DNA from: an uncultured Actinomycetes bacterium
GTDB lineage: Bacteria; Actinomycetota; Thermoleophilia; UBA2241
Assembly: GCA_963725665.1 (NCBI GenBank)
Contig: CAVRZA010000011.1
Location: forward strand, 192,001 to 256,000
DNA: 64,000 nucleotides
Direction: 5' to 3'
The notes below the pieces were generated by a model. That model saw nothing but the letters and a program-made list of their open reading frames with translations, was not told where the DNA came from and did no database searches. Positions 4,481 through 32,900 of this stretch are shown in pieces; position 1 is the stretch's first letter, and every line of letters begins with the position of its first letter. The translations under genes and the position numbers were made by a program.

Positions 4481-5206
4481 TTACAGCTGCAGGAGCCGCC
4501 CGAACCCGAGCACCGGCTCACCGATGCCGGCGAGCCGCAACGCCTCCCAGAACGACGCCTGGTTGGCCGAGACGACCGGCTTGGCGAGGTCCTCCTCGAG
4601 CTCCTGGAGGATCGCCGCCGTGCGCAGGTTCGTGCAACTGATGAAGACGGCGTCGGCGTCGGGACGGTCGAGGTCGCGCGCCTGCGCGTAGACGCGCTCG
4701 GGCGAGGTGCGACCGATGTCGTGGTCGTCAGCGAAGCCGAGGCTGCTCGTGGCGAGCACCTCGAAGCCCTGCTCGGCGAAGTACGCGGCGCCGCGCGCGG
4801 TGACCTCCTCGAGATACGGGGTGGCGAGCACGATGCGCTGCGCCCCAACGGCGCGCAGGCCGTTCGCCGCAGCGCTGGCCGTTGTGGTCACCGGCAGCCC
4901 GCCGGTGGCCGCGCGCATCGTCTCGATGATGCGCTCGTCGTAGCTCTTGCCCTCGACGAAACTGCCGCTGGTGCATCCGAAGACCATGCTGTGCAAGGGA
5001 GCCATGGCGAGCACCCGCGCCGCCTCGGCCGTGCGCTCGGCGAGCTTGCGCAACTCCTCCACGGTGACGCGCGCAAGCTCGACGCGTGTCGTGTGGATAG
5101 ACACGCCCTCGGGCGTCATTGCGTAGCACTCCGGCTCCATGACGGTGCTGGTCGAGGTGTAGATGAGCCCTATCCGGGCCCGGTAGCCGTACAGGTCAGG
5201 CTGCAT
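4481..5206 (-). CDS. Maleate cis-trans isomerase / arylmalonate decarboxylase (Asp/Glu racemase superfamily) protein
   Basis: RIGLIY...MEPE, FGCTSGS and ISCTNL catalytic Cys pair, PVVSANQA. Confidence 0.88.
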   Translation of the reverse strand: MQPDLYGYRARIGLIYTSTSTVMEPECYAMTPEGVSIHTTRVELARVTVEELRKLAERTAEAARVLAMAPLHSMVFGCTSGSFVEGKSYDERIIETMRAATGGLPVTTTASAAANGLRAVGAQRIVLATPYLEEVTARGAAYFAEQGFEVLATSSLGFADDHDIGRTSPERVYAQARDLDRPDADAVFISCTNLRTAAILQELEEDLAKPVVSANQASFWEALRLAGIGEPVLGFGRLLQL

Positions 5207-5402
5207 CAGTCCCCTCCACGAAGCGGTTGTACGGAGCTAGCTTCTGCGCCTCACGGCGAGCACGTCAAGCGCACGCGATCCCCCGGCCGCATCGCCTGTC
5301 AACTTGGTCCCGAGGGCGGTTAGGCGGTACCGTGATAGAAGAGACGCCGCGTCGGTGGAACTGCGGGGCACAACGACAACGACATCGAAGACCGAGGGAG
5401 AG

Positions 5403-6464
5403 ATGCAGGAGATCGTTCGCGAGACGCAGGCCCTACTGGGAGAGAGCGAGCCCTTTGCCCTGGTGACCCTCATCGCCGAGGAAGGGTCGACGCCGCGCGC
5501 CGCCGGCGCCGAGATGCTCGTGCGCGTGGACGGCTCGATCGCGGGGACCGTCGGAGGGGGACTGCTCGAGGCGACGGCGATGCAGCAGGCCCGCGTGGCG
5601 ATCGAGACGAGGCGCTCGACGGCGATCACCGTCGAGCTGACCGGCCAGAACGTCCAGGACGCGGCGATGCTCTGCGGGGGCCGGGCCCAGCTGCTCGTCT
5701 CATTCGTGCCCGCGGGTGACCGCGAGCTGTCGCGGATCTGCTCCGCTCTTGCGGCTGCTCTGGAGGCGGGTCGGCCGGCCCACTTGGTCACTGTGTTCGG
5801 CCCCGCCGGCTGCGGAGGAGGGTGCTTGGTCGCTCGTTCCCTGGTGGAGGACGGCGGTGTAGTGGCCGGCGCGTCGCTCGAACCCGCCATCCTGGCCGTG
5901 TCCCTCTCCGAGGGCTCCGGTGTGCACAACCGCGAGCTGCCCGACGGCCGCGAGCTTCATGCGGAGACCATCGAGCCGGTGCCGGTGGTGGTGATCTGCG
6001 GCGCCGGCCATGTGGGACAGGCGCTCGCTCCGGCGGCGGCCGCAGTGGGGTTCGACATCGTAGTCATCGACGATCGCCCCGAGTTCGCCTCCCGCGAGCG
6101 TTTCCCCATCAGTGCACGGCTCGTCGTCCCGCCCGATTTCGAGCGCGCCTTCGAGTCGGTCGAGCTAGGGACGCGCACCTACGTCGTGGTCGCGACGCGC
6201 GGCCACACGCACGATTTCACGGTCCTCGAGCAGGCACTGCGCACTGAGGCCGCCTACATCGGCCTCATGGCGAGCTCGCGCAAGCGCAGACGCTTCTTCG
6301 AGACGCTGCTCGAACGGGGGCGCACGGAGCAGGACCTGGAGCGCATCCACAGCCCCGTCGGCCTGGCGATCGACGCCGAGACGCCGGCCGAACTGGCCGT
6401 GAGCATCGTCGCCGAGCTGATCAAGGTGCGGGCGGAGTTGCGACAGGCGGCCTTGAGACGATGA
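5403..6464 (+). CDS. xdhC: XdhC/CoxI molybdoenzyme accessory protein
   Basis: GSTPR, GTVGGG, CGG, GAGHVG, TRGHTHD, YIGLMASS, SPVGLAIDAETPAELAVSI. Confidence 0.92.
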   Translation: MQEIVRETQALLGESEPFALVTLIAEEGSTPRAAGAEMLVRVDGSIAGTVGGGLLEATAMQQARVAIETRRSTAITVELTGQNVQDAAMLCGGRAQLLVSFVPAGDRELSRICSALAAALEAGRPAHLVTVFGPAGCGGGCLVARSLVEDGGVVAGASLEPAILAVSLSEGSGVHNRELPDGRELHAETIEPVPVVVICGAGHVGQALAPAAAAVGFDIVVIDDRPEFASRERFPISARLVVPPDFERAFESVELGTRTYVVVATRGHTHDFTVLEQALRTEAAYIGLMASSRKRRRFFETLLERGRTEQDLERIHSPVGLAIDAETPAELAVSIVAELIKVRAELRQAALRR

Positions 6465-6491
6465 CATCGCTGCAACGGGCGGCGCCACAGC

Positions 6492-7712
6492 ATGGTAGCG
6501 CCGCGACGGTCGGAGCGTAAGGCGGGTCCGGTGAGCGGTCCGCGCTTTGCGGCCGTCGTGCTGGCCGGCGGGCGCTCGTCACGCTTGCCACCGCTCAAGC
6601 CCCTCCTGCCCGTCGACGGCGTCCCGGCCGTCGTGCGCACAGCGAGTACCTTCGGCGACGTAGGAGTCGAGCCGCTCGTCGTGGTCGGCTTCGCAGCCGC
6701 TGAGCTCGTTCCCGTACTGGAGGCCGCCGCCCTGCACTACGCCGTCAACGAGGACTACGACCGTGGCATGTACTCGTCGCTCGTGACCGGAGTGCGGGCG
6801 CTCGGCGAAGCCGGCGGTGGAACATGCGACTGGCTCTTCGTCCAGCCTGCCGACTGCCCGCTGGTACGCGGCGAGACGATCGGCCGCCTGATGCGCGCGG
6901 CCAGAGGCGCGGGGCGCGGGGCGGCGCGCCCTGAGGGCGCGCCGCCCCGCGCCCTCATCCCGACTGCTCATGGACGGCGCGGGCACCCGCCACTGCTGTC
7001 GGCCGGGCTGCTGCCGGCCGTCCTGAAGCGTGAACCACCTGGCGGTCTGCGTACGCTGCTCGACGACCTCGGCGACGAAATCGGGGAGGTGCCGGTCGAC
7101 GATGAAGGCGTGCTTCTCGACATGGACGACGCCGAAGGCTACGCACGTGTCGAGAGACACGCCGTGCTCGAGAGGCTGCCCGACACAGACGCCTGCGAGG
7201 CGCTCCTGCGACGTCGCGCTACGCCGCCGGCGGTGGTCGCCCACTCGCGGGCCGTGCGCGACGTCGCCCTGCGCCTCGCGCGCGCGGCCAACGCCCAGGG
7301 CCTCGGCATCGATCTCCACCTGCTGGAAGCCGCGGCGCTCACCCACGACGTCGCTCGTGAGCGACCCGACCACGCCGCGGCGGCCGCGGCCGTGCTCGAG
7401 GCCGAGGGCTACCCGCGCGTGGCATGCGTCGCGCGTCACCACATGAGCCTCCCCGGACTACCTTCGGACCCGCCGGGCGAGAGGGAGCTCCTCTACCTTG
7501 CCGACAAGCTGGTGCGCGACGAGACGGTCGTGACGCTAGACGAGCGCAAACGAGAGGCTGCGGCGCGTTTCAGCGCTCCGGAGGCTCAGGCTGCGGCGGC
7601 TGCTAGGCTGCAGGCGGCCGGCGTCGTAGCACGCTCTCTCGAGCGCGCGACCGGCCGCCCGCTGGCGGACCTACTGGCCGAGCCGCCGCCCAACCCCGGC
7701 GGTCGCCCATGA
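6492..7712 (+). CDS. MocA-like molybdenum cofactor cytidylyltransferase fused to HD domain
   Basis: VLAGGRSSR, GMYSS, DCPLV, GHPPL, DMDD followed by HS...HD...HH...ADK HD motifs. Confidence 0.82.
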   Translation: MVAPRRSERKAGPVSGPRFAAVVLAGGRSSRLPPLKPLLPVDGVPAVVRTASTFGDVGVEPLVVVGFAAAELVPVLEAAALHYAVNEDYDRGMYSSLVTGVRALGEAGGGTCDWLFVQPADCPLVRGETIGRLMRAARGAGRGAARPEGAPPRALIPTAHGRRGHPPLLSAGLLPAVLKREPPGGLRTLLDDLGDEIGEVPVDDEGVLLDMDDAEGYARVERHAVLERLPDTDACEALLRRRATPPAVVAHSRAVRDVALRLARAANAQGLGIDLHLLEAAALTHDVARERPDHAAAAAAVLEAEGYPRVACVARHHMSLPGLPSDPPGERELLYLADKLVRDETVVTLDERKREAAARFSAPEAQAAAAARLQAAGVVARSLERATGRPLADLLAEPPPNPGGRP

Positions 7713-8455
7713 GCGCCCGCCTCCCGGAGCTGCTTGCCTGTGACCTCGACGGCACCCTCATCGACGAGGCCGGCCGGCCGCATGCCGGGGTCCCCGAGGC
7801 GCTCGCCTCACTGGTGGCCGTCGGCGTGCCCCTGGCCGTCTGCAGTGGGCGCCCGCTGTACGCGGCGCAGCACCGAAGCGAGCGTCTGGGGGCGGTCCCG
7901 CGTGCGTTCATCTGCTACCACGGGGCGCTCGTCGTCGACACGGCCACGGACGCGTGGCTGCAGCACCTGACGGTGCCGCAGCCACGCGTCCTCGCCGTCA
8001 CTGCCGACGCGCTGGAGGCCGGGCTCTCGGTGACCCTCTACATCGGTGATGAGCGCGTCGAGCTCCCCGCCGAGCCCAAGCGGATCCCCGCCTTGCCCGG
8101 CCCGGTGACTCGGATCATCCTCACGGGCGAGCCGGCCGTGCTCGACGACGCCTTACCCTCACTCAGGAGACGCTGGGGTGAAGGCCTGCGCGTAGAGCGC
8201 GCACACCCGTCGGTGATCGACGTGCTCGACGGACGCGCCGACAAGGGAGCGGCGCTCGCCTTGCTTGCCGCGCACCTTCAGATCTCCCTTGCAGGCGTCG
8301 TCGCGTGCGGCGACTCGCGCAGCGACGTCTCGTTGTTGCGGGCCGCCGGCAACGCGGTCGCGGTCGGCGACGCACCCGACCAGCTGCGGCGCGTCGCCAA
8401 GACAGTCGTCGCGCCCGACCACCTGGCGGCCTTCCTCCTCTCCCTGCTCCGGTAG
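7709..8455 (+). CDS. HAD superfamily (Cof-like) hydrolase
   Basis: DLDGTL, SGR, DKG, GDSRSD. Confidence 0.88.
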   Translation: MSARLPELLACDLDGTLIDEAGRPHAGVPEALASLVAVGVPLAVCSGRPLYAAQHRSERLGAVPRAFICYHGALVVDTATDAWLQHLTVPQPRVLAVTADALEAGLSVTLYIGDERVELPAEPKRIPALPGPVTRIILTGEPAVLDDALPSLRRRWGEGLRVERAHPSVIDVLDGRADKGAALALLAAHLQISLAGVVACGDSRSDVSLLRAAGNAVAVGDAPDQLRRVAKTVVAPDHLAAFLLSLLR

Positions 8456-8609
8456 CCTCTGACGGGGGCATGCCGAACGGAAGCCGGTCATCGCCGCATC
8501 CCGCACTCTGCCGTCGATCCCCGGCCTCCCGCCTCGCTCCACACTCGCCGTCGACCGCCGGCCTTGGCGCCGGGGGGCACTCGCCGCTTCGACCAAGCCA
8601 CCGGCCGGG

Positions 8610-8654
8610 TGTGCAGCTGCCCACGACCCCCCGGCAGAAGTGTGCATTCACCCA
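8610..8654 (+). promoter_or_regulatory. Putative PucR-family operator site A
   Basis: TGTGCAGCTGCCCA near-palindrome plus second TGTGCA 31 bp later; 27/36 identical to the site at 15142. Confidence 0.6.
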
Positions 8655-8834
8655 GGTCCGGGCCCCCGACCTCTTGTGTTTCATGGTCGCAAGAAGCGCG
8701 GCATCGCGACGCGAGCCCGGGACGCACGATGGCCGTCCTGGGCGTGAGGCGGCGGTGACGCGATTTGAGCTCAAGGGGCCGCGCCAGTCTGCGCCCCGTC
8801 ACCGTCGGCCCTTCGCACGTGCAAGGAGCAACTG

Positions 8835-9452
8835 ATGAAGACAGAGACCAGCGTGGACGCCCGCGAACGCATCGTCGTGCCTGCCCGCGAAGGCAGAGGG
8901 GTGCGCATCGCAAAGGGCCAGTCGTTCCGCATCGTCGACCTCGAGGGCTCCCAGGTCGGCGATCTGTTCGCCTTCAACGCCGACGATGTACGCGAGTACC
9001 ACAGCGCCCACCACACGCGCGCCGTCGTCGATCGGCTGTTCCCCGTACCCGGAGAGCGGTTCCAGAGCAACCTGCGCCGGCCGATCATGACCTTCGTCGC
9101 CGACGACAGCCCCGGCATCCACGACATGCTCATCGCCCCCTGCGACCCCGCGCGCTTCGAGCAGCTGGGGGTGCAAAGCTGGCACGCTTCGTGTCAGGAG
9201 AACCTGCAGATGGTGATGGCCGGCTTCGGCTTTCCCGACGTCGTCGTGCCGCAGTCGATCAACCTCTTCATGAACATCCCGGTGCGACCCGATGGGACGA
9301 TCGACTGGCTCCCTGCGCCCACGAAGGCGGGCGACTCCGTCACCATGCGCGCTGAGATGGACTGCTACATCGTGCTCTCGGCCTGTCCCCAGGACATCAT
9401 CGTGATCAACGACAAGGCGCCGTCGCCGATGGCGATCGACGTGCTCGACTGA
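8835..9452 (+). CDS. DUF1989 / urea carboxylase-associated (carboxyguanidine deiminase-like) protein
   Basis: IVDLEGSQVGD, HDMLIAPC, SCQENL, NLFMNIPV, SACPQD. Confidence 0.85.
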   Translation: MKTETSVDARERIVVPAREGRGVRIAKGQSFRIVDLEGSQVGDLFAFNADDVREYHSAHHTRAVVDRLFPVPGERFQSNLRRPIMTFVADDSPGIHDMLIAPCDPARFEQLGVQSWHASCQENLQMVMAGFGFPDVVVPQSINLFMNIPVRPDGTIDWLPAPTKAGDSVTMRAEMDCYIVLSACPQDIIVINDKAPSPMAIDVLD

Positions 9453-9489
9453 CCGCCCATCGAGAAGAGGGACCTTCGAGGAGGCGCAG

Positions 9490-10863
9490 ATGAGGAAGAG
9501 GTTCGAGTACCTGAGACCCGCCACGGTCGAGGAGGCCTGCGACTTCAAGTCGCGCTATGGAGCGGGCGCTCGCTTCCTCGCCGGTGGGACCGACCTGATC
9601 CACGACTGGCGTCGCGAGCAGGTCTCGTTCGACTACTGCATCGACCTGACCTTCATCCCCGGTCTCGACTCCTTCGAGTGGAACGGGGAGCACCTGCGCG
9701 TCGGGTCCCTGGCCAAGCTGTCAACGATCGCCGCGGCGGCGGCGGAACCCGGCCTGCCGGGCTTCTTGGCCTCCGGCGCGCGCCGCATGGGCACGCCCCA
9801 GATCCGCAATCTGGCGACTGTGGGCGGCAACATCTGCCACGCCTCGCCCTGCGCCGACATGGCCGTCATGTTGACGGCACTCGACGGCGAGGCACAGCTG
9901 CAGTCGAGCCGCGGCAGCAGGTCGCTGCCGTTGCGCGAGTTCTTCAAGGGTGTCAACGAGACCGGCGTGGCGGACGATGAGCTGCTCACGGAGGTCCTCG
10001 TGCCGATCCCAGCGGCCCGTACCGAGGCCTCCTACCAGCGCGCCACGCGCACAAGCGTCGACCTCGCCCAGGCCAGCGCGGCGGTCTGCCTGAGCACGGA
10101 CGACGGCACGACCGTGAGCCGGGCGCGCATCGCGATAGGCGCCTGCGCGCCGGTCCCTGTGCGCTCCGATGCCGCCGAGGAGATCCTCGTCGGCCTCGAC
10201 CTGAACGACCGCGACCGCGAGACCATCGAGCTGGCGGCCTCGCGGGCGGAGTGGGAGACGAGCCCGATCTGCGATATCCGCGGCTCCGACGAGTACCGGC
10301 GCGAGGTGAGCAGGGTCCTCGTGCGACGCGCCGTCGAAGACTGTCTGGCGAGAGCTGGTCGGCGTCCCGGCGTCGGTCTAGGAGGGAGTGCACCCATGGC
10401 GACGCTACACGTGAACGGATCGGTGCACGAGCTCGACATCGAGCCGCACGAGACCCTCTCCGAGGTCTTGCGCGAGAAACTCGGCCTGCGCGGGGTGAGG
10501 GTCTCGTGCGGCGAAGGCGAGTGCGGCTCGTGCACCGTGCTCCTCGACGGCCGCCCCGTCACCTCATGCCTGATGCTGGCGCTGCAGGCCGAGGGCAAGG
10601 AGGTCACGACTATCGAGGGCCTAGGCACCGAAGACGATCTGCACCCGATACAGCAGGCGTTCATCGACGAGCAAGGCTTTCAGTGTGGGTTCTGCACGCC
10701 CGGGGTGATCCTGAGCACGAAAGCCTTCCTCGAGACCAATCCCGACCCCACCCCTGCCGAAGCGGCTGCGGCCCTCACCGGTCACATCTGCCGCTGTGGG
10801 GCCTACCCGCACATCGTGCGCTCTGTGATCCACGCGGCGCATCAGAACGGAGGCCCCTCATGA
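9490..10863 (+). CDS. XDH/CODH-family FAD subunit read in frame into the 2Fe-2S subunit (internal ATG at 10396)
   Basis: AGGTDL, QIRNLATVGGN, DIRGS..YR; then CGEGECGSCTV, QCGFCTPG, CRCG. Confidence 0.9.
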   Translation: MRKRFEYLRPATVEEACDFKSRYGAGARFLAGGTDLIHDWRREQVSFDYCIDLTFIPGLDSFEWNGEHLRVGSLAKLSTIAAAAAEPGLPGFLASGARRMGTPQIRNLATVGGNICHASPCADMAVMLTALDGEAQLQSSRGSRSLPLREFFKGVNETGVADDELLTEVLVPIPAARTEASYQRATRTSVDLAQASAAVCLSTDDGTTVSRARIAIGACAPVPVRSDAAEEILVGLDLNDRDRETIELAASRAEWETSPICDIRGSDEYRREVSRVLVRRAVEDCLARAGRRPGVGLGGSAPMATLHVNGSVHELDIEPHETLSEVLREKLGLRGVRVSCGEGECGSCTVLLDGRPVTSCLMLALQAEGKEVTTIEGLGTEDDLHPIQQAFIDEQGFQCGFCTPGVILSTKAFLETNPDPTPAEAAAALTGHICRCGAYPHIVRSVIHAAHQNGGPS

Positions 10864-22729: not shown

Positions 22730-22738
22730 GGCTCCACC

Positions 22739-25044: not shown

Positions 25045-25056
25045 AGCGCCGCCGCC

Positions 25057-25908
25057 CTACGCGACGGCGGCTAGGATCGTCACGGCGACGAGCGTCAGCG
25101 CGATGCCGAGCAACTGAGTGCGCGCCGGTCGCTCGCGCAGCAAGACCATGCCGAGGACGACGGCCATAGTGCCCGTCTGCGCCACGACGATGCCGACGAC
25201 CGAGAGCGGACCCAGCGAGGTCGCGGTGGCGAACGTGAGGATCGCTACCGTGTCGAGGAGGCCGCAAGCGACCACGCGGCGGCGGAACGGACGCGCCACC
25301 TTCCAGGTGCCGCGCAGGATGGCCAGCGGCAGAAGCAACACGACCGTCGCCAAGCCGGCGAACAGGGCCACGCCGACCGGCGGCAGCGCCGAGGCCTCGC
25401 CGAAACAGATGGTGACGAGCCCGAACGCGGCCGCCGCCGCCACGGCCCAGCCGGTCCCGGCGGCGGCTGACCGCGGCCGTCCGCCGTCGGCGTCCGGCTC
25501 GAGCGAGGTCAGCGCACTGCCGACGAGCGCCAGCGGCAGGCCGATCCACACGGCGCGCGCGACCGGCTGCCCGATCAGGAGCACGAAGACCACGGTGAAG
25601 GCGCTCGAGAGCGAGCCCAGGGGGGAGAGCACTGACAGCTTGCCGCGGCTGAGCGCCGTGAGCCAGGCGGTGAAGGCGGCGACCTCGAGCGTGCCGCCCA
25701 GGGCGGCCAGACCGGCGGCACGCCATTGGTCGCCGCCTGAGGGCAGGCTCCCGACGGCCAGGAAGATGACGACCAGACCCGCCAGGGCGACGACCCGGAT
25801 CCAGAGGACTCCCGCGATCGCCGCGGTCGCGCGCGCCACGGGCATGAGAAGGAAGTCCTGCAGCGCGTAGTTGAACGCGGTCGTGAGCCCGAGCAGAACG
25901 GTCAGCAT
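25057..25908 (-). CDS. DMT/EamA family transporter
   Basis: GKLSVLSPL, LRERP; paralog of the neighbour. Confidence 0.85.
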   Translation of the reverse strand: MLTVLLGLTTAFNYALQDFLLMPVARATAAIAGVLWIRVVALAGLVVIFLAVGSLPSGGDQWRAAGLAALGGTLEVAAFTAWLTALSRGKLSVLSPLGSLSSAFTVVFVLLIGQPVARAVWIGLPLALVGSALTSLEPDADGGRPRSAAAGTGWAVAAAAAFGLVTICFGEASALPPVGVALFAGLATVVLLLPLAILRGTWKVARPFRRRVVACGLLDTVAILTFATATSLGPLSVVGIVVAQTGTMAVVLGMVLLRERPARTQLLGIALTLVAVTILAAVA

Positions 25909-25954
25909 CGCATTCTCACGCTCACGGCCGGTGGTCGAGGATCGGGTGGGTGGA

Positions 25955-26000
25955 GGGCGCGGGCCTAGGGTCCGCGTCCGCGGACCCTAGGCCCGCGCCC
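25955..26000. terminator. Perfect 22-bp hairpin overlapping the fprA stop
   Basis: gggcgcgggcctagggtccgcg-tc-cgcggaccctaggcccgcgccc. Confidence 0.7.
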
Positions 26001-27168
26001 CGAAGAGCTCCCCGTGTTTGGCCGCGATGCCCTCGGCCAAACGATCAAGCGCCGCGTAGTCCTCCGTGCGCGGCAAGCCCTTGCACATCACCGGCTCGAA
26101 GAACTCGGCCTTCACGTGGGGCATCAGCCCGGCGAGCTGGTCGACCGTCTTGCCTCCCCAGCCGTACGAGCCGACGATGGCAGCGTACTTCATCTTCGGC
26201 TTCAACGCGTTGGTCAGAAACGCCGCCGTAGCGGCCGCAGGATGCGGGCCGCCGAGCACCGTCGGTGTGCCGATGACCACGGTGGCCGCATCGACCAGAG
26301 CGGTGGCGAGCTTGCCCGTGTCGACCGACGCGAGATCGAAGCGCTCGACGCCGACGCCACGTGCAGCGAGCCCGTCGACGAGGCGGTCGACCATGTGCCG
26401 CGTGCTGTCGTGCATCGACACGTAGACGATCACGGCGAGGTTCTTGGGCTCGTCCGACACCCAGTCCCGGTAGGCGTCGATGATGAACGCCGGCTTGTCG
26501 TAGACGGGCCCATGCGAGGGAGCGATGAACTTGATCTTGTAGCCGTCGAGCTTGTCGAGGTTCTTCTGGATGATGTTGCGGAAGGGCATCATGATCTCGG
26601 CGAAGTAACGCTTCGCCGGTTCGTAGACGCGGCGCTCCTCGGCGAAGAGGTCGGTGGTGGCGAGGTGGGAGCCGAAGAAGTCGCAACTGAGAAGGAGCTT
26701 CTCCTGCTGCACGTAGGTCGACATGGTCTCCGGCCAATGCACCCATGGGGTGTACAGGAACTTCAGCGTCAGATCGCCGAGCGAAAGGCTCTCGCCGTCG
26801 GCCACCGGCGAGAAGCGCTCGTCGGGCAGGTGAAGCAGATCGATGAGCATCCCCTTGCAGCGCTCCGAGCAGACGATCTTCGCCTTTGGATAGCGCTCGA
26901 GCACCGCGGCCAGTGAGCCGGAGTGGTCCTGCTCGGCGTGGTTGGCCACGATGTAGTCGACCCTGTCGATGCCCTCGAGCTGCTCGAGCAGCACCCCGGT
27001 GAAAGCCGGGTCGACCGTCTCGACGAGCGCCGTCTTGTCGCTGCCGAAGACTAAGTAGGCGTTGTAGCTCGTGCCGTCGGGGATGGGGATGAGCGCGTCA
27101 AAGAGCCGCCGATCCCAATCGACTGCGCCGACGAGCGAGACCCTGTCGGTGATCTTGCGAGCCTTCAT
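25987..27168 (-). CDS. fprA: Flavodiiron protein (FprA, O2/NO reductase)
   Basis: GTSYNAYL, NHAEQDHSG, HWPETM, CDFFG, PSHG, flavodoxin GSYGWGG. Confidence 0.95.
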   Translation of the reverse strand: MKARKITDRVSLVGAVDWDRRLFDALIPIPDGTSYNAYLVFGSDKTALVETVDPAFTGVLLEQLEGIDRVDYIVANHAEQDHSGSLAAVLERYPKAKIVCSERCKGMLIDLLHLPDERFSPVADGESLSLGDLTLKFLYTPWVHWPETMSTYVQQEKLLLSCDFFGSHLATTDLFAEERRVYEPAKRYFAEIMMPFRNIIQKNLDKLDGYKIKFIAPSHGPVYDKPAFIIDAYRDWVSDEPKNLAVIVYVSMHDSTRHMVDRLVDGLAARGVGVERFDLASVDTGKLATALVDAATVVIGTPTVLGGPHPAAATAAFLTNALKPKMKYAAIVGSYGWGGKTVDQLAGLMPHVKAEFFEPVMCKGLPRTEDYAALDRLAEGIAAKHGELFGARA

Positions 27169-27201
27169 GGCACCCCTCTAAGGATCGACTGCGACTGGGG
27201 A

Positions 27202-27864
27202 CTAGGCTATCCGCCACCCGCTGTCGTGTCGAGCACGCCTCCCCAAGGGACGCCGCAGCACCCGCCTCGGTCCTTCCCTGGCCGTTCGGTTTCCGACTTT
27301 CGGTGGCTGCGCCGACGCGCGCCCCGGCACACGCTTCGCCGAGGGTCCCCGCGCTCTTGACCGCGCGCCGTCACTGTCGCCCGCGCACGGTGTAAGCCGC
27401 TGGGCCTCGACCAGGCGCCAGAGGAGCTCGGCAAGCCTCCAACGCTCGTGCGGGCGCCACTCGGCGAGCTTGAGGCTGAGATCGGACGCGCGTGCTTGCC
27501 GGATCTGCCGCAGCGCGTTGAGCCCTTCGACCGTGAGGCGCACGCGCCAAACGCGATGATCTCTGGGGTCACGCGCGGCGTAGATGAGACGATCGCGATG
27601 CAGGCGAGCGAGGTGGCGCGACAACGTCGTCTTGTCGATGCGCAGGTTGCGCGCCAGGTGGGTGGGCGTCGGAGACGTGACGATGTCGATTTCGTTGAGG
27701 ACGGCGTAGCGCACGGGCGTGAGCCGCCACGCCGCGAAGGCCAGCGGCAGGCCGGCGTTGCGCAGCGAAACGATGTAGGGGCGGGGCTTGACGGCGGCGA
27801 AGACCAGGGCCGTCAGCGCCGCCTCGATCATCGCCTCGAGGTTGTCGCGCTCGCGAGGGTGCAC
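27202..27864 (-). CDS. MarR family transcriptional regulator
   Basis: LARNLRIDKTTLSRHLARL...DHR...LTVEG winged HTH. Confidence 0.7.
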   Translation of the reverse strand: MHPRERDNLEAMIEAALTALVFAAVKPRPYIVSLRNAGLPLAFAAWRLTPVRYAVLNEIDIVTSPTPTHLARNLRIDKTTLSRHLARLHRDRLIYAARDPRDHRVWRVRLTVEGLNALRQIRQARASDLSLKLAEWRPHERWRLAELLWRLVEAQRLTPCAGDSDGARSRARGPSAKRVPGRASAQPPKVGNRTAREGPRRVLRRPLGRRARHDSGWRIA

Positions 27865-28062
27865 GCGCTCCAGCGTAGCCGCATGCGGGTTGTTGCGAGA
27901 AGTAGGGGACGGGGTGGGTGTGGTGGCTGTTTCAGGCAGTTGGCATATACAACCACCTGAAACGGCGAATCACCACCACCGGCCGAGCTCGGAGGCGGCG
28001 CCGCAGAAGGGAAGCTGCGTTGGGGCGCGGAAGAAGCGAGCGAGGTCCGCAGCCCTCGAGCC

Positions 28063-29280
28063 CTACAGCTCGTTCACGAGCTGCTCGAGGAAGAGGCCGA
28101 CGTCGGTGACGATGCCGATGGTCTGGAAGCTGCCGCGGTCGGCCAGTTTCGTCACGACCGCGGGGTTGATGTCGACGCAGACGGTGAGCACCGAGGCGGG
28201 CAGCAGGTTGCCCGTGGCGATAGAGTGCAGCATGCTCGAGAGCATGAGGCAGGCGCCGGCGTCCTGGCAGTAGGGGCGCATCGCCTGCTGGGCGCCGACG
28301 ACGTCGCTGATCACTTCCGGGAGCGGACCGTCGTCGCGGATCGACCCGGCGAGCACGAAGGGCGTGCCGGTCGTCACCAACGTGTGCATCAAACCGGTCT
28401 TGAGCACGCCCTGCTCGACCGCCTGCCGGATGCCGCCGCAGCGCCGCACGGTGTTGATGGCGCGCAGGTGATGCTCGTGGCCGCCGGGCGCCGGCGTCCC
28501 CTCGGTGAGCGAGACGCCGAGCGAGGTGCCGAAGAGCGCGGACTCGATGTCGTGGGTCGCCACCGCGTTGCCGCCAAAGAGCACGTCGACGTAGCCCAGC
28601 TTCACGAGGCGCGCGAGGTGGCCGTGCGCGCCGGTGTGCACCACGGCAGGCCCCACGACGGCGATGATCTTGCGTTCCTGTTCCTTGCTGCGTCTCAGCA
28701 GCCGCGCCACCTCGTGGATGATCTGCGCCTTGGGCTTCTCAGAGGACACCGCTGAGGCCATGAACTCGAACGGCTGGCTCTCGCGCGGGCGTTCGAGGGG
28801 CACGACGCGGAGGCCGCGGCGACCGACGACCAGTCGGTCGCCGCGGCGCACGTCGCTCATCGGTATCGTCTCGGCCGTGCGGCCCGCCGCATCGACCTTG
28901 ACGCCGCAGTCCATTTCCGGCCTCTCCACACGCACCCACTGCCCGCCGAGGCGCACGTACGTCTCGAGGTTCGTGGTCGAGTAGAACTCGTCGGGGAACA
29001 CTCCGTCGGTCGGCGCCTCGGCGAGCTCGGCGTCGTGCGGTTCCACAGAGACGGCGCCGTGCTCTTGGATCGCCTCGAGGATCATCTCGAGGTGCGCTTG
29101 GTCGCGCCCGAAAACACGCAGCACGGCGGTCGAGATGTCCGTCTTGGTGCGCCCGACCTCGAACGACAGGATCTCGTACTCCCCCTCGAGATCCATGATG
29201 TCGTCCATGATCCGCGGGACGAGCAGTGAGTCGATCAGGTGGCCCTGGATGCGGACGTCCTCGTAGAGCTTGCGCGGCAT
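28063..29280 (-). CDS. TIGR00300 / LOR-SDH family protein (AgrE/ArgZ C-terminal-like ornithine cyclodeaminase)
   Basis: GHLIDS, FYSTTN, EMDC, FEFM..VSSEKP, GPAVVHTG, LAGSIRDDGPLP, MLHSIATGN, KLADRGS. Confidence 0.9.
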   Translation of the reverse strand: MPRKLYEDVRIQGHLIDSLLVPRIMDDIMDLEGEYEILSFEVGRTKTDISTAVLRVFGRDQAHLEMILEAIQEHGAVSVEPHDAELAEAPTDGVFPDEFYSTTNLETYVRLGGQWVRVERPEMDCGVKVDAAGRTAETIPMSDVRRGDRLVVGRRGLRVVPLERPRESQPFEFMASAVSSEKPKAQIIHEVARLLRRSKEQERKIIAVVGPAVVHTGAHGHLARLVKLGYVDVLFGGNAVATHDIESALFGTSLGVSLTEGTPAPGGHEHHLRAINTVRRCGGIRQAVEQGVLKTGLMHTLVTTGTPFVLAGSIRDDGPLPEVISDVVGAQQAMRPYCQDAGACLMLSSMLHSIATGNLLPASVLTVCVDINPAVVTKLADRGSFQTIGIVTDVGLFLEQLVNEL

Positions 29281-29335
29281 GGGTCGCTCCTCTGTCAGCG
29301 TGCCGGCGTCGAGGTTGGCGCAGGGCCGGTCGACG

Positions 29336-30325
29336 CTAGCCGACCGAGTCTATCGTAGTCCGGCCACCGTCAACGGTGAGGAGTGCGTCCCCCGGCGTCC
29401 CCGGCTCGCGCGTCCCGCGAGTGGGGAGAAGCTCGATGACGAGCACACCGCAGAAGATCAGCGTGGCCCCCGTTATGAGCCGCCAGGTGATCGAGTCCAT
29501 GCCGAATATGATGCCGAAGACGGCGCCGAAGACGCTTTCGAAGCAGAGCAGGACGGCGGCGTGTGTCGAGGTCGTGCGGCGCTGCGCCCACGACTGCACG
29601 AAGAAGGCGTAGATGGTGCCCGAGAGGGCCGTCCAGACGATCGCCGCCCAGGCCTGCCACGGTAGCGCCAGGGTGACGTCGGTGACGAACGGCGTGATGA
29701 CGGCGGCGAACACCGCCGAGGCGGCGATCTGAGTGATGGCGAGGGTCGCCGGCGCCACTTTCGCGGCGAAGAACCCGGTCGTCATGATGTGCAGTCCGTA
29801 GAAGAGAGCACCCAGGAGCGTCAGGCCGTCGCCCCAGCTCATGATGGCCCCGCCGCTGAAGACATCCCGTCTGAGCGAGAGTACGCCGAGCCCGGCGGTG
29901 GCGATGATGGCCCCGGCGATCTGGCTGAGGCCGGGCGAGCGCCGCGCGACGAGCCAGTAGAGGAAAGGAACCATGGCGACGTTGAGGCCTGTGATGAAGC
30001 TCGACTTGCCGGGCGTCGTGTACTGCAGGCCGACCGTCTGCACGACGAGCGCCGTGAGGTAGAAGGCGCCCAGGACGGCGCCCATCACCCAGTCGGGCCT
30101 GCGGCTGCGGGTGAGACTGCGCGGCGCGATGGCCGCGAACATGACGAAGGCCGCGACGTAGCGCAGAAGGACGTAGAGCATCGGGTCGATGCGCCCGATG
30201 GCGTCCTTGATGACGACGAAGTTGAAGCCCCAGACGACGGCTACCGAGAAGAGCGTCAGGTCGGCGACGAGCTGCTCGCGGTGCAGCCGCGCGGGAGCCT
30301 GCATCGCCGCGCGCCGGTCGGCCAT
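29336..30325 (-). CDS. DMT/EamA family transporter
   Basis: WGFNF, GLQYTT, FITGL, QSWAQ, FESVF. Confidence 0.9.
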   Translation of the reverse strand: MADRRAAMQAPARLHREQLVADLTLFSVAVVWGFNFVVIKDAIGRIDPMLYVLLRYVAAFVMFAAIAPRSLTRSRRPDWVMGAVLGAFYLTALVVQTVGLQYTTPGKSSFITGLNVAMVPFLYWLVARRSPGLSQIAGAIIATAGLGVLSLRRDVFSGGAIMSWGDGLTLLGALFYGLHIMTTGFFAAKVAPATLAITQIAASAVFAAVITPFVTDVTLALPWQAWAAIVWTALSGTIYAFFVQSWAQRRTTSTHAAVLLCFESVFGAVFGIIFGMDSITWRLITGATLIFCGVLVIELLPTRGTREPGTPGDALLTVDGGRTTIDSVG

Positions 30326-30346
30326 CGTGCCTCGCTCCCGGCGACG

Positions 30347-31105
30347 TCAGGCCGTGACGCCGCCGTCGACCGACCAGGACACGCCCGTGATCCAGGCCGC
30401 CTCGTCGGAAGCGAGGAAGGCGACGACCGCCGCGATCTCCTCGGGGCGGCCGGCGCGCCCCAGCGGGTAGGGGTCGGCCTGTACGGCCGCGTAGGCCGCC
30501 GGATCGGGCGCGTCGGCGATCGCCTTCTCGAGCATCGGCGTGTCGACGACGCCGGGCGAGACGCAGACGAGGCGGATGCCGTCGGGGCCGTGGTCGATGG
30601 CGAGGGAGCGGGTGAGCATGATGAGGCCGGCCTTGGCGGCCGAATAGACACCCGCTCCCGGTTCGCCGTGGAGACCCGAGTCGCTGGCGATGTTGATGAT
30701 GACGCCCTTCTTGCGCGTGACCATGTGCGCGAGGACGGCCTTCATGGTGAAGAAGGCACCCTTGAGGTTGGTGTCGATGCAGAGATCCCAGTCAACCTCG
30801 CTCGTCTCGAGGATCGGCCTCTCCAGCCACACGCCGGCCGAGTTCACGAGGATGTCGAGGCGCCCGTGACGCTCGAGCGTCTCGGCGACGATGCGCGCGC
30901 AGTCGGAGACGCGCGTGATGTCGCCGAGCACGTAGGAGGCGCGATCGTCGTCTGAGAGGCTGGCCGCCACGGCGCGCGTGCGCGCCGCGCCGCGTCCCAC
31001 CACGACGACGATCGCGCCCTCGTCGCAGAGCCGCCGCGCGCATGCCTCGCCGATGCCCGAGGAGCCACCCGTGACCAGCGCCACCTTGTCCTTCAACCCG
31101 AGCAC
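30347..31105 (-). CDS. SDR family oxidoreductase
   Basis: TGGSSGIG, NSAG, YSAAK, PGVVDT. Confidence 0.9.
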   Translation of the reverse strand: MLGLKDKVALVTGGSSGIGEACARRLCDEGAIVVVVGRGAARTRAVAASLSDDDRASYVLGDITRVSDCARIVAETLERHGRLDILVNSAGVWLERPILETSEVDWDLCIDTNLKGAFFTMKAVLAHMVTRKKGVIINIASDSGLHGEPGAGVYSAAKAGLIMLTRSLAIDHGPDGIRLVCVSPGVVDTPMLEKAIADAPDPAAYAAVQADPYPLGRAGRPEEIAAVVAFLASDEAAWITGVSWSVDGGVTA

Positions 31106-31133
31106 GCGAGCCTCCTTGTCGGCGGTTTTGGCC

Positions 31134-32441
31134 TCAGCCAGCGCGGCCGCACCAGCGCATGGCGGTGAGCGCGACGATGGCGCAGTAGTCGACGAGCTCG
31201 TCGACCGACACGCACTCGTTCACGGCGTGGGCGGTGTTCATGCCGCGGGGACCGAACGAGAACGTGGGCGTGTCGCCGAAGAGCGTGAACGTGGCCGCGT
31301 CGTGCCACGAGTTGAGGCCGCCGAGGCGGCCGGGCCGGCCGAGCTCGGCGGCCGTCTCGAGCGCGAGCCGCACAAGGGGGTGGTCCCCCGGTATCTCGGC
31401 CGGCGGCACATCGTACTCCCACTCCCAGGTGAGCGGGTGGGCGGCGATCCAGTCGTCGGCCTCGGCGGCGGCATCGATGCGCACGCGCATCTCCTCCTTG
31501 ATCGAGGCGCCGCTCAGGCCGTGCACGGGGAGGTAGTGCGCATCGAGCGTCAGGTGGCAGAAGGCGGGGATGGTCACGTCCCAGGTGCCGCCGTCGACGA
31601 GCACGGGCACGATGTCGCCGGGAGCCAGGAGCGGGTGCCGCATGTCCGGCCGTGCCTGCCAGTCGGCGTTGAGTCGCCGGATCTCGCTGAGGATCGGGAC
31701 CAGCTTCTCGATGGCGTTCACGGCGCCGCCTTCGCGCCAGTCGGGCTGCGGTTCCTGCGAGTGGCCGGCGCGCCCCTCGATCGTGATGCGCGGCTTGAGG
31801 ATCCCCCGGCAGGCGACCCACGCCTCGAACTCGGTGGGCTCGCCGCACAGCCCGGCGTCGGCGCGATAGCCGCGCCGCACGACCTCGCGCCCCCCGGCGC
31901 CAGAGGACTCCTCGTCGGTCACGGTGGCCACGAGGAGGTCGCCGGCCAAGCGGATGCCGAGGCGGTGGAGGAGCTCGACGGCCAGGACCAGCGCGGCGAT
32001 CGGGCCCTTCATGTCGTTGGCGCCCCGCCCGTGGAGCAACCCGTCGCGCACCTCCGCGCGGAAGGGGTCGCTCAGCCACCGCTCGCGCGGCTCGACGTCG
32101 ACGGCGTCGATGTGACCGCAAAGGAGGAGGGAGCGGCCGGACGGGGCGCCCGCGAAGCGAGCGACGAGCTGCGGCCGCCCCACGAAATCGAGGCCGGCCG
32201 GGCCGTAGGGGTCGCCGGCCTCCGTGGTCTCGGCCTCCCAGAGGTCGATCTCGCCCCCGGCCGCGGCGAGACGGCGCGCGACGGCGGCCTGCAGCGCGGC
32301 TTCGTCGCGCGGCGGCTGGCCGCCGTCGCGCGCCGTCGTGTCGTACGCGACGAGCTCCGCGGCGAAGCCGACGAGCTCGTCGCGCGCCGCGCGCGCCGCC
32401 TCGATCACCTCGAGCTCGAGCTCGTCGAAGGGGCCGCTCAC
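31134..32441 (-). CDS. ArgE/DapE family M20 deacylase
   Basis: GHIDAV, GRGANDMKG, DEE, GEPT, FGP, AHAVNE. Confidence 0.9.
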   Translation of the reverse strand: MSGPFDELELEVIEAARAARDELVGFAAELVAYDTTARDGGQPPRDEAALQAAVARRLAAAGGEIDLWEAETTEAGDPYGPAGLDFVGRPQLVARFAGAPSGRSLLLCGHIDAVDVEPRERWLSDPFRAEVRDGLLHGRGANDMKGPIAALVLAVELLHRLGIRLAGDLLVATVTDEESSGAGGREVVRRGYRADAGLCGEPTEFEAWVACRGILKPRITIEGRAGHSQEPQPDWREGGAVNAIEKLVPILSEIRRLNADWQARPDMRHPLLAPGDIVPVLVDGGTWDVTIPAFCHLTLDAHYLPVHGLSGASIKEEMRVRIDAAAEADDWIAAHPLTWEWEYDVPPAEIPGDHPLVRLALETAAELGRPGRLGGLNSWHDAATFTLFGDTPTFSFGPRGMNTAHAVNECVSVDELVDYCAIVALTAMRWCGRAG

Positions 32442-32549
32442 CTGTCTCCATCGCCTTGGGGTTGGATTCGTGGGAAGATTCTACAGGAGCACCCAGTGGG
32501 CGAACGCCCGCCAGCCATCGGCCGGCGCAACGAGCGAACGGAGGTCACG

Positions 32550-32900
32550 ATGAGCACCGACGTCAGCACCGCGATCAGGGTCGTGAAGCCGAGCGACGTG
32601 ACCTGGAGCGAGGCCTATCGCGGCCCCGAGGAGAAGGAACCGCCGGGCGTGCAATTCACCGCCTTCGAGGCGGGTCCCTTCAGCACCGGCTTCTGGCAGC
32701 GCGACGAGCAGGCGCGTCCCTTCGAACGCCCTTACCACGAGATCGCCTACATCATCGAGGGCGAGGTCGAGGTGACGATCGAGGATGGGACGGTCATCCA
32801 CGCCGGTCCGGGCGACATCATGGTCACCCCCAAGGGGAGCAAAGGGTACTGGAAGAACCTGTCGCCCGTGCGCAAGTTCTGGGCCATCTTCGAGGAGTGA
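32550..32900 (+). CDS. Cupin (EutQ/DUF861-like) protein
   Basis: RBS ggagg; GFW, EIAYIIEGEV, GPGD, PKG, VRKFW. Confidence 0.85.
   Translation: MSTDVSTAIRVVKPSDVTWSEAYRGPEEKEPPGVQFTAFEAGPFSTGFWQRDEQARPFERPYHEIAYIIEGEVEVTIEDGTVIHAGPGDIMVTPKGSKGYWKNLSPVRKFWAIFEE

Follow-up and report, generated by a model that had tools for sequence, protein, structure and literature searches.

A conserved gene cluster with a possible role in guanidino-compound catabolism, carrying a molybdenum-hydroxylase insertion, in an uncultured Thermoleophilia bacterium

The stretch of DNA analyzed here (hereafter the window) comprises 64,000 nucleotides of contig CAVRZA010000011.1, positions 192,001 to 256,000, from an uncultured Actinomycetes bacterium of the Thermoleophilia. 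Among the genes listed in Table 1 we define a core operon (8835–9452 and 15317–24156) encoding a stand-alone DUF1989 protein, three SDRs (SDR1–3), a CE4 "polysaccharide deacetylase" hydrolase (abbreviated PDA), an APC-superfamily permease, two carbamoyltransferases, a small pentein and a short hydrophobic protein; the genes of a molybdenum (Mo)-hydroxylase and of a PucR-family regulator lie between its two parts. Raw lists of open reading frames (ORFs) are crowded because the G+C content is about 70%, and frames were therefore picked by third-position G+C and then compared with Pfam and NCBIfam. A previous reading of the sequence (the original prediction) had taken the whole 28 kb as one PucR-controlled catabolic pathway for a guanidino/ureido or N-heterocyclic compound. 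Its observations were largely right, and its one-pathway interpretation partly right. We suggest that the core is a conserved, previously undescribed catabolic operon, most likely for a guanidino compound, into which the Mo-hydroxylase has been inserted, a reading to which we would give about an even chance of being correct. No published account of this operon was found in our literature searches, and the literature on DUF1989 yielded nothing on this gene context.

The genome comparison was anchored on PDA. An alignment of PDA homologs (A1) yielded 80 loci, one genome per species, onto which the window proteins, the intact proteins of the closest locus and four partner proteins were mapped by tblastn; genes were counted at E ≤ 1e-8 and a query coverage of at least 40% within 10 kb of PDA (SDR4 only at 60% identity or more), and all the counts given below refer to these 80 loci. 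The closest genome locus (L001) is on contig CAVZSF010000005.1, from an uncultured Thermoleophilia metagenome-assembled genome (MAG). Its gene order is carbamate kinase (minus strand), DUF1989, SDR1, SDR2, PDA, APC permease, SDR3, a half-EamA protein, carbamoyltransferase 1, carbamoyltransferase 2, pentein and lutABC (minus strand), with 79–85% DNA identity to the window over the core and 80% identity between the DUF1989 proteins. The carbamate kinase gene is divergent and upstream (TIGR00746: 414.9, cut-off 358.25). The half-EamA protein (L001:13347-13829), also hydrophobic, is 53% identical to the 145-aa ORF found after the pentein gene in the window. This ORF (hydrophobic, weakly EamA-like, E 9e-4) is the sole unassigned one, and none of the called genes matched the cupin family that had been claimed, ORFs in alternative frames not having been scanned. 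In L001 some 145 bases stand in place of the window segment 9449–15378, in which PucR and both hydroxylase genes lie, and the window gene for the FAD/[2Fe-2S] subunit begins 38 bases past DUF1989, inside the conserved gene order. Sulfatase and transporter genes stand in L001 in place of the XdhC, NTP transferase and HAD genes of the window. The hydroxylase and PucR genes are a lineage-specific insertion into a conserved operon, and the maturation genes lie a short way upstream of it. Synteny in relatives had been named as a check on the original prediction: the core order is kept in L001 and beyond, more than expected by chance, but the whole 28 kb is not.

Within 10 kb of PDA we found DUF1989 in 52 loci, PucR in 44, an OYE flavoenzyme in 43, an NCS1 permease in 36, an arginase-family gene in 21, SDR1 in 15, SDR2 in 14 (plus the L001 copy, which is in four frame pieces) and the APC permease in 13. 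Three layouts were recognized. In 43 loci, most of them from Actinomycetes, DUF1989-OYE-PDA is found with PucR and NCS1; in 14, belonging to Thermoleophilia, Chloroflexota and Limnocylindria, the layout is ureohydrolase-APC-SDR1-SDR2-PDA(-SDR3); and some Solirubrobacteraceae show ureohydrolase-PDA-NCS1-DUF1989. Among cultured bacteria, Patulibacter defluvii DM4 (L014) has the SDR-SDR-PDA-ureohydrolase type, and Amycolatopsis, Nonomuraea, Kribbella and Mycobacterium smegmatis have the DUF1989-OYE-PDA type. SDR1 and SDR2 occur together beside PDA in 14 of the 79 loci other than L001, accompanied by an arginase-family gene in 14/14 and by the APC permease in 11/14. In these 14 sub-core loci an agmatinase-family ureohydrolase replaces the pentein and the carbamoyltransferases; the one from locus L004 exceeds the cut-offs of two agmatinase models (NF002564: 325, cut-off 302; TIGR01230: 247, cut-off 174.3). 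The SDR-SDR-PDA sub-core therefore never occurs without a guanidino-removing enzyme: this role would fall to a pentein plus two carbamoyltransferases in the window and L001, and to an agmatinase-type hydrolase in the other loci. Agmatine is handled in two ways, by agmatinase or by the agmatine deiminase route, and the replacement observed here mirrors these two routes. A guanidino substrate and a deiminase-type mechanism are proposed chiefly on this ground, which together with the L001 carbamate kinase also favors the guanidino/ureido catabolic function of the original prediction.

Two related loci merit a separate remark. In L012 (8687–10861, plus strand), an arginase-family domain and a PDA domain are present in a single 724-aa ORF, and in L053 (8598–10861), the arginase-family and PDA genes abut at position 10001. 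Whether this is a true fusion or read-through, ureohydrolase and CE4 hydrolase are tightly coupled.

The pentein is assigned to its superfamily from sequence (L001 ortholog, Pfam ADI: 74.2, cut-off 22.8). The GGGPHC motif near the C-terminus is kept in both L001 and the window, and an alignment of 40 sequences shows D90, R109, E137, D140, R156 and H187 without variation and C282 conserved in at least 90%; penteins have a catalytic C-terminal Cys that acts with His and acidic residues. The L001 protein scores far below the cut-offs of the NCBIfam models for ArcA (TIGR01078: 47.8, cut-off 489.1), ArgZ and DDAH (NF052232: 45.4, cut-off 450; NF045660: 61.6, cut-off 340), and its nearest structures, ArgZ, arginine deiminase (ADI) and DDAH, are distant relatives. 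The subfamily is rare, with 28 representative clusters among 1.84 billion matching at E ≤ 1e-30; the number rises to 422 when the threshold is relaxed to 1e-10 and to 1623 when it is 0.001. We consider the small pentein a probable guanidino-group hydrolase. The original description of a pentein is upheld, but the amidinotransferase label attached to it found no support.

Both L001 carbamoyltransferases retain SxRTR (as SLRTR), HPxQ and HCLP and lack DxxxSMG; the motifs of ornithine carbamoyltransferase (OTCase) are STRTR, HPxQ, HCLP and the ornithine-binding DxxxSMG. The two paralogs fall below the OTCase model (TIGR00658: 203 and 249, cut-off 280.85), the putrescine carbamoyltransferase model (TIGR04384: 183.4 and 197.6, cut-off 500) and the YgeW models (TIGR03316: 99.3 and 151.3, cut-off 500; NF005538: 107.8 and 168.3, cut-off 453). 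For N-acetylornithine carbamoyltransferase (AOTCase; NF003384, cut-off 288), paralog 1 scores 257.7 and paralog 2 a borderline 286.5, the broken window copy reaching 239.5. An AlphaFold2 model of L001 carbamoyltransferase 2, built from a 43-sequence alignment (A2), has a pLDDT of 93.6, and its best Foldseek matches in the Protein Data Bank (PDB) are AOTCases (TMq 0.88–0.89, root mean square deviation 1.8–1.9 Å), OTCases giving 0.75–0.83. The "knotted-type" label of the original prediction would agree with this fold, in that the model of the intact ortholog is nearest to AOTCase. The specificity residues of the Xanthomonas AOTCase, Glu92 and Lys302, align with Thr98 and Glu314 (phmmer against chains of 3m5c and 3l05, numbered 20 above the residue number), and both of these are at least 90% conserved in A2. 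Judging from source names, the family of carbamoyltransferase 2 is widespread in anaerobic lineages at 55–60% identity; relatives of PDA and of carbamoyltransferase 2 were found on contigs of equal size (45928, 14381 and 5416 bases).

These results bear on the possibility that the genes serve arginine or N-acyl-arginine metabolism, with N-acetylarginine converted by the pentein to N-acetylcitrulline and this by an AOTCase to N-acetylornithine and carbamoyl phosphate, followed by deacetylation through PDA or M20 and proline formation by TIGR00300, or that they serve plain arginine biosynthesis. The near miss of carbamoyltransferase 2 at the AOTCase cut-off and its fold point in this direction, as do the membership of PDA in a deacetylase family, the ArgE-like M20 and ornithine cyclodeaminase genes nearby, and the invariant arginines of the pentein, which could bind a carboxylate, as in DDAH and ADI. 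However, the two AOTCase specificity residues are replaced in the alignment, both paralogs are below the cut-off, argB, argC, argD, argG, argH and argJ are missing from the Pfam and NCBIfam matches of the region, the three SDRs and DUF1989 would have no role, and the M20 and cyclodeaminase genes are not syntenic. We therefore regard arginine or N-acyl-arginine metabolism as unlikely. Housekeeping arginine biosynthesis was rejected on these grounds. No curated NCBIfam equivalog of a known pathway was matched, in keeping with the original view of an undescribed pathway.

With respect to known systems, the closest likeness is to the routes in which breakdown of a guanidino group yields ATP. The agmatine deiminase pathway consists of AguA, putrescine carbamoyltransferase, carbamate kinase and an agmatine/putrescine antiporter, with the agmatinase SpeB as the alternative. 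The operon shares with it a pentein, an OTC-family carbamoyltransferase that would act phosphorolytically, a carbamate kinase (in L001), an APC-superfamily transporter and the replacement elsewhere by an agmatinase-type enzyme. It differs in that its pentein is ADI/DDAH/ArgZ-like, with no agmatine deiminase family among the Pfam matches, in the low putrescine carbamoyltransferase scores, in having two carbamoyltransferase paralogs and in the additional three SDRs, CE4 hydrolase and DUF1989. The arginine deiminase pathway (ArcA, ArcB, ArcC and ArcD) offers the same succession of deimination, phosphorolysis to carbamoyl phosphate and ATP formation. Nevertheless, the 291-aa pentein is remote from ArcA, DxxxSMG is absent and the ArcD model is far from matched (TIGR03810: 34.9, cut-off 591). 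The Xanthomonas AOTCase (3kzc/3kzm) provides the best fold, the best NCBIfam model, a similar size and a similar region past "KxW", but the paralogs lie below its cut-off, carry Thr and Glu at the positions of Glu92 and Lys302, and are found in a catabolic context. The operon would work like the agmatine and arginine deiminase routes and is a member of neither.

The PDA protein belongs to the CE4 superfamily (Polysacc_deac_1: 62.5, cut-off 23.1). D29, D31 and H108 are invariant in 24 sequences and H104 is conserved in at least 90%. The CE4 metal motifs being Asp and His-x3-His, D29, D31, H104 and H108 are putative metal ligands. The closest structure, 3rxz (1.5e-68), is annotated only as a polysaccharide deacetylase, without a function, and a search of the ESM Atlas with PDA returned only generic "polysaccharide deacetylase" clusters. 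The likeness to the allantoinase PuuE that had been proposed is only a distant one (3cl6, E 4.4e-16), the PuuE model being far from matched (TIGR03212: 66.9, cut-off 424.6). For DUF1989 the closest structure, 3oru, is again without a function. In the literature searched, the DUF1989 family has two reported functions, as carboxyguanidine deiminase (PMC11271267) and as a domain of trimethylamine N-oxide (TMAO) demethylase (PMC12560246; PDB 9q59). CgdAB, of the guanidine carboxylase pathway, shares the DUF1989 fold family with the operon protein and acts on a guanidine derivative (PMC11271267), but the scores of the window protein are low (TIGR03424: 103.5, cut-off 284.7; TIGR03425: 70.6, cut-off 205.95). 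Moreover, unlike CgdAB, it is encoded by a single, unpaired gene, without a carboxylase or an allophanate hydrolase beside it; gene-family scans found no carboxylase in the window.

The Mo-hydroxylase contains the features of the xanthine oxidase family by Pfam: a hammerhead domain, two MoCo-binding domains, FAD, two [2Fe-2S] domains and an XdhC-type chaperone, the FAD domain preceding the Fe-S domains in the smaller subunit. It does not score as a xanthine dehydrogenase (XDH) proper with NF043082 (XdhA, the best of these models: 388.2, cut-off 780), TIGR03196 (330.4, cut-off 783.65) and TIGR02965 (197.4, cut-off 849.5). The closest structures for the Mo subunit are 4-hydroxybenzoyl-CoA reductase, CoxL, PaoC and the quinoline oxidoreductase Qor, and the true XDH 1jro came 14th of 15 (1.7e-41). 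A homolog of this subunit with 91% identity (P0242) is likewise 815 aa long. The XdhC protein is close to the "XdhC family aldehyde oxidoreductase maturation factor" (NF045664: 344.5, cut-off 350) and the HAD phosphatase is below TIGR00099 (106.8, cut-off 137). The "MocA maturase" is present as a MobA-like NTP transferase-HD protein of the DVU_1551 family (NF045665: 320.9, cut-off 315), but its score for MocA/YgfJ is low (TIGR03310: 67.6, cut-off 186.45); from its sequence it is a probable pterin-cofactor nucleotidyl transferase. In a large protein collection, relatives of PDA and of the Mo subunit were found on metagenomic contigs of equal size from the same source in six cases (41949, 68060, 28271, 13543, 7119 and 4628 bases; for the first, PDA is 88% and the Mo subunit 76% identical) and in a seventh (11218 bases) the sources differ. 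If each pair shares one contig, the two genes would have to be close together on those of 4.6–13.5 kb. The hydroxylase probably provides an oxidative first reaction on a heterocyclic precursor, and this is the weaker link of our proposal.

A Mo-hydroxylase, a PuuE-related CE4 hydrolase and PucR in one place, with a carbamate kinase in L001 and NCS1 (allantoin/uracil-type) permeases beside PDA in 36 loci, might also suggest a variant of purine or allantoin breakdown, with XDH, a PuuE-type allantoinase, an SDR acting as ureidoglycolate dehydrogenase, an oxamate-type carbamoyltransferase, carbamate kinase and PucR. This appears very improbable, since neither the PDA nor the Mo subunit reaches the corresponding models, the Mo subunit is nearer to the non-XDH enzymes named above, uricase, HIU hydrolase, OHCU decarboxylase, allantoicase and AllC/AllE were not seen with Pfam or NCBIfam, and the agmatinase-family partners in relatives have no place in allantoin breakdown. 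The E. coli-type anaerobic urate cluster (ygeW-ygeX-ygeY-hyuA-yqeA/xdhD/ssnA/ygfK) is described in a 2025 review as containing enzymes without well-defined substrates (PMC12623156). As in that cluster, one neighborhood here combines an M20 protein with a Mo-hydroxylase and a carbamoyltransferase of the AOTCase class, joined in L001 by a carbamate kinase. However, the carbamoyltransferases fall short of the YgeW models, the M20 protein of the window is below both YgeY models (86, cut-off 321.5; 115, cut-off 321), and scans of the window genes with Pfam and NCBIfam showed none of the SsnA, HyuA, YgeX and YgfK families, as the original prediction had stated. In reductive and oxidative pyrimidine breakdown, and with PuuE and the cyclic-imide hydrolases, a ring is activated by reduction or hydroxylation and opened by a hydrolase, and the ureido group is removed. 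The DUF1989-OYE-PDA-NCS1-PucR loci (43/80) and the hydroxylase-PDA version of the window fit this pattern, although no operon enzyme is orthologous to those of the pyrimidine, allantoin or cyclic-imide systems.

Control by PucR of the operon is an assumption, and the original extension of this control to the entire region is not borne out. The window PucR is 23–41% identical (local matches) to the PucR proteins of related loci, L001 has no PucR within 20 kb, and a repeat search of four intergenic regions revealed no common operator motif. A hairpin 69 bases past the stop of the Mo-subunit gene, not followed by a T-run and not listed by the consensus terminator scan, suggests that the hydroxylase genes may be transcribed separately from PucR and the SDR genes. 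Counts in the promoter and terminator consensus scan equaled the shuffled expectation. Rfam searches gave only sub-threshold, chance-level matches in the window (4000–33500, E ≤ 1), with no riboswitch, and two tRNAs only in seven related loci at the gathering score.

Between 17.6 and 23.3 kb, the third-position G+C frame of the window switches repeatedly and Pfam matches are partial or split over ORFs. DNA alignment with L001 revealed 16 single extra bases in the coding sequence (17649–23252): one in PDA (17649), eight in the permease (18165, 18380, 18453, 18847, 18872, 18890, 19300 and 19411), two in carbamoyltransferase 1 (20669 and 21191), one in carbamoyltransferase 2 (22636), and in the pentein three close together (22799, 22828 and 22905) and a frame change at 23252. 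Deletions, larger indels and in-frame stops are absent, all 16 lesions being insertions, and from the aligned contexts most of them lie outside homopolymers. In L001 the corresponding ORFs are intact (permease, 513 aa; SDR3; carbamoyltransferase 1, a 374-aa ORF; carbamoyltransferase 2, 348 aa; pentein, 291 aa), and they map to window frames 1,2,3,1,2,3 (permease), 3,1,2 (carbamoyltransferase 1), 1,2 (carbamoyltransferase 2) and 2,3 (pentein), the pieces being 57–93% identical, each in its own frame. The last 30 residues of carbamoyltransferase 2 are in a different frame, and its homologs of about 348 aa cover 89% of the window ORF. PDA loses its frame at about 17649 and its ORF continues to 17857, with 60 codons of read-through; its homologs (277–315 aa, about 290) cover some 80% of the ORF, and divergence from the 98%-identical P0001 starts at about residue 281, some ten residues before the end. 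SDR3 is 90% identical to its L001 ortholog over 19667–20410, and its true start is probably near 19655.

Two further sets of frame breaks were observed. In L001, SDR1 and SDR2 (8531–10010) are split by bases that are extra with respect to the window (L001 8982, 9147, 9477, 9723 and 9919), so that both assemblies hold +1 insertions in the same operon, in different genes, SDR1 and SDR2 of the window being intact. In the window, the only probable break seen outside the operon is near 47.6–47.7 kb in a gene for a family-5 solute-binding protein, part of an Opp/Dpp-type ABC operon (about 47313–49000, minus strand), where the Pfam match ends at profile position 324/368 at the end of the ORF and the G+C frame shifts at 47588/47589.

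It is possible, though in our view doubtful, that the operon is here a decaying pseudogene cluster, with real insertions and nothing functional between 17.6 and 23.6 kb. The concentration of all sixteen insertions within 5.6 kb of coding DNA, against one probable break elsewhere in the window, would fit such decay, as would the dN/dS values relative to L001, 0.14–0.33 for the broken genes versus 0.10–0.12 for the intact DUF1989 (0.10), PDA and SDR3 (0.11). The same dN/dS values are also among the findings in favor of the proposed operon. The insertions in SDR1 and SDR2 of L001 and the missing carbamate kinase of the window point the same way. However, the presence of insertions only, in pieces that remain well conserved, would better fit long-read consensus errors or very recent events, and L001 is likewise a MAG. 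The 16 insertions represent either assembly consensus errors or very recent decay, and we lean towards error because all the lesions are insertions.

Returning to a catabolic operon for a guanidino compound, the analysis shows the gene families, the synteny, the replacement pattern, the fold of carbamoyltransferase 2 and the frame breaks, whereas each chemical step and the class of substrate are inferred. The APC permease would take up the guanidino compound and the small pentein would hydrolyze its guanidino group to a ureido group and ammonia. One or both AOTCase-fold carbamoyltransferases could then cleave the ureido group phosphorolytically, giving an amine and carbamoyl phosphate; the two decarbamoylations originally proposed are just one possible reason for the presence of two paralogs. 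A carbamate kinase, encoded in L001 and absent from the window, would use the carbamoyl phosphate to form ATP. The rest of the molecule may be processed by DUF1989, by SDR1–3 and by the CE4 hydrolase, the last acting on an amide or ring bond that it opens or removes. In related bacteria, an agmatinase-family ureohydrolase would perform the guanidino step instead.

Several findings weigh against this proposal. The genes for the Mo-hydroxylase, XdhC, NTP transferase and HAD phosphatase are found in none of the 80 loci, including the closest two; the equal contig sizes are indirect evidence of a linkage of PDA to the hydroxylase, and one further pair of equal size (PDA and carbamoyltransferase) is certainly due to chance, because its 1539 bases could not accommodate the two genes. 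The low identity of the window PucR to those of related loci has been described above. No carbamate kinase was found by tblastn (E ≤ 1e-5) in the whole 64-kb window, consistent with the absence of arcC noted originally. SDR1–3, PDA and DUF1989 are without an assigned step. Frame breaks affect five core genes (the pentein, both carbamoyltransferases, the permease and the very end of PDA), and the operon might therefore not function in this organism. PDA occurs without any partner in 10 loci, and 13 of the 80 loci span less than 15 kb. Finally, 43 loci pair PDA and DUF1989 with OYE, mostly together with NCS1, and without a guanidino enzyme. The PDA/DUF1989 pair is therefore not tied to guanidino chemistry as such, and it probably acts on a ring or amide delivered by differing entry enzymes.

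A more speculative idea, which we consider improbable, is that the 3rxz-type CE4 hydrolase and the stand-alone DUF1989 form the center of a modular system, mainly of Actinomycetota and some Chloroflexota, for the degradation of cyclic guanidines or ureides, with guanidinohydantoin as a candidate substrate. In reductive and oxidative pyrimidine breakdown, and with PuuE and the cyclic-imide hydrolases, a ring is activated by reduction or hydroxylation and opened by a hydrolase, and the ureido group is removed. The DUF1989-OYE-PDA-NCS1-PucR loci (43/80) and the hydroxylase-PDA version of the window fit this pattern, although no operon enzyme is orthologous to those of the pyrimidine, allantoin or cyclic-imide systems. 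Entry would be provided by the Mo-hydroxylase in the window, by the OYE reductase in most Actinomycetes loci or by SDRs, followed by ring opening by the CE4 hydrolase. The guanidino group might then be removed by an agmatinase-type enzyme, or by the new pentein, two AOTCase-fold carbamoyltransferases and carbamate kinase, with a gain of ATP. Guanidinohydantoin is an oxidation product of 8-oxoguanine, for which the review cited above postulates allantoinase-like opening enzymes (PMC12623156). The combination in one operon of a hydroxylase, a PuuE-related hydrolase and guanidino/ureido-removing enzymes fits this idea.

If a guanidino compound is indeed the substrate, the operon would represent a third deiminase/carbamoyltransferase/carbamate-kinase route gaining ATP from a guanidino group, after those for arginine and agmatine, built from enzyme subfamilies without an assigned substrate: a rare pentein, two AOTCase-fold carbamoyltransferases, the 3rxz-type CE4 family and stand-alone DUF1989. 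As the CE4/DUF1989 pair occurs in 52 of the 80 loci, from soil Actinomycetota, Thermoleophilia and Chloroflexota, knowing its substrate would help to annotate many genomes and to understand how guanidino or heterocyclic nitrogen is turned over in soil. The copy in this window is of lower value, since it is frame-broken and the reading of a single 28-kb pathway does not hold.

Table 1. Genes and other features of the window between positions 4481 and 32441
Feature	Positions	Strand	Evidence and remarks
Amdase/EutA-like racemase-family gene	4481-5206	-	Pfam/NCBIfam; divergent from XdhC
XdhC-family maturation factor of the Mo-hydroxylase	5304-6464	+	Pfam XdhC_CoxI + XdhC_C
MobA-like NTP transferase fused to HD, DVU_1551 family	6492-7712	+	Pfam NTP_transf_3 + HD
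HAD-IIB (Cof-type) phosphatase	7709-8455	+	Pfam Hydrolase_3; 4-base overlap with preceding gene
Stand-alone DUF1989 protein; the conserved core begins with this gene	8835-9452	+	Pfam DUF1989, 2.5e-49
Mo-hydroxylase FAD/[2Fe-2S] subunit	9490-10863	+	Pfam FAD_binding_5, CO_deh_flav_C, Fer2, Fer2_2
Mo-hydroxylase molybdopterin subunit, 815 aa	10860-13307	+	Pfam Ald_Xan_dh_C, MoCoBD_1, MoCoBD_2
G+C-rich hairpin, possible terminator	13376-13407	+	Repeat search; 15+15 nt, 100% complementary
PucR-family regulator	13476-15140	+	Pfam PucR, GGDEF_2, HTH_30
SDR1	15317-16054	+	Pfam adh_short
SDR2	16056-16817	+	Pfam adh_short
CE4 hydrolase PDA, normally 290 aa	16805-17678 (end approximate)	+	Pfam Polysacc_deac_1 + DUF2334
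APC-superfamily permease, six frame pieces	~17923-19480 (ends approximate)	+	Partial Pfam match, C-terminal part only
SDR3	19520-20413	+	Pfam adh_short from residue 51
AOTCase-like carbamoyltransferase 1, three frames	~20469-21571	+	Pfam OTCace_N and OTCace on separate ORFs
AOTCase-like carbamoyltransferase 2	~21673-22729	+	Pfam OTCace, ending at profile position 129 of 157
Small pentein, ~291 aa	~22745-23621	+	Pfam ADI / DDAH_eukar spread over two ORFs
Membrane protein, 145 aa, weakly half-EamA-like	23719-24156	+	Pfam EamA, below cut-off
Convergent block: EamA, EamA, flavodiiron protein, MarR, TIGR00300, EamA, SDR4, M20	24211-32441	-	Pfam + NCBIfam
Flavodiiron protein (metallo-beta-lactamase-like + flavodoxin domains) with MarR-family regulator	25987-27864	-	Pfam/NCBIfam
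TIGR00300 ornithine cyclodeaminase	28063-29280	-	540.5, above cut-off 410.8
SDR4	30347-31105	-	Pfam
M20 ArgE/DapE-like	31134-32441	-	Pfam/NCBIfam

The convergent minus-strand block and the racemase-family gene decide how much of the original pathway can be kept. That proposal linked all of 4481–32900, under PucR, in a sequence of hydroxylation, opening, deimination, two decarbamoylations, deacylation, cyclodeamination and racemization. Pfam and NCBIfam recognized the Mo-hydroxylase, XdhC, DUF1989, four SDRs, the APC permease, two carbamoyltransferases, TIGR00300, the ArgE-like M20, the racemase-family gene and three EamA/DMT genes, so that every listed family but the cupin is present, and the carbamoyltransferase product of a citrulline-like compound could feed the ArgE-like M20 and TIGR00300. 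However, seven genes of the block (EamA1, EamA2, flavodiiron protein, MarR, TIGR00300, EamA3 and SDR4) are beside PDA in none of the 80 loci and M20 in only one (41% identity), the L001 operon ends at the pentein with lutABC next, the racemase-family gene was found in one locus at 30% identity, and the flavodiiron protein and MarR interrupt the block. A single pathway over the whole 28 kb is therefore highly unlikely. In view of the missing synteny and of lutABC following the pentein in L001, we judged the minus-strand block to be unrelated to the operon. The racemase gene is a neighbor only.

TIGR00300 is reported to be a nickel-pincer (NPAD) ornithine cyclodeaminase, a description attributed to Desguin 2025 (PMC13524815). 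None of the LarB, LarC and LarE families was found among the window genes scanned, so the cofactor genes of this enzyme, if it is active, would be elsewhere. The flavodiiron protein and MarR, located between the DMT genes and TIGR00300, are together with the AFOR gene described below a hint of an oxygen-sensitive lifestyle.

The remainder of the 64-kb window contains unrelated genes. At 36083–41381 (plus strand), an aldehyde:ferredoxin oxidoreductase (AFOR) gene is directly followed by a non-pyrrolysine MttB-superfamily methyltransferase gene (TIGR02369: 355.7, cut-off 525; an open frame without an internal stop) and then by a histidine-ammonia-lyase-family gene (NF006871: 274, cut-off 524). 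These three genes could act as a unit on a methylated amine or betaine, and are unusual company in an actinobacterial-type genome of 70% G+C. A PKD-domain ORF (32981–35254, minus strand) overlaps an MFS ORF (33605–35854, plus strand; match at residues 362–587), and the third-position G+C frame changes strand at about 34500, within these overlapping ORFs (32981–35854).

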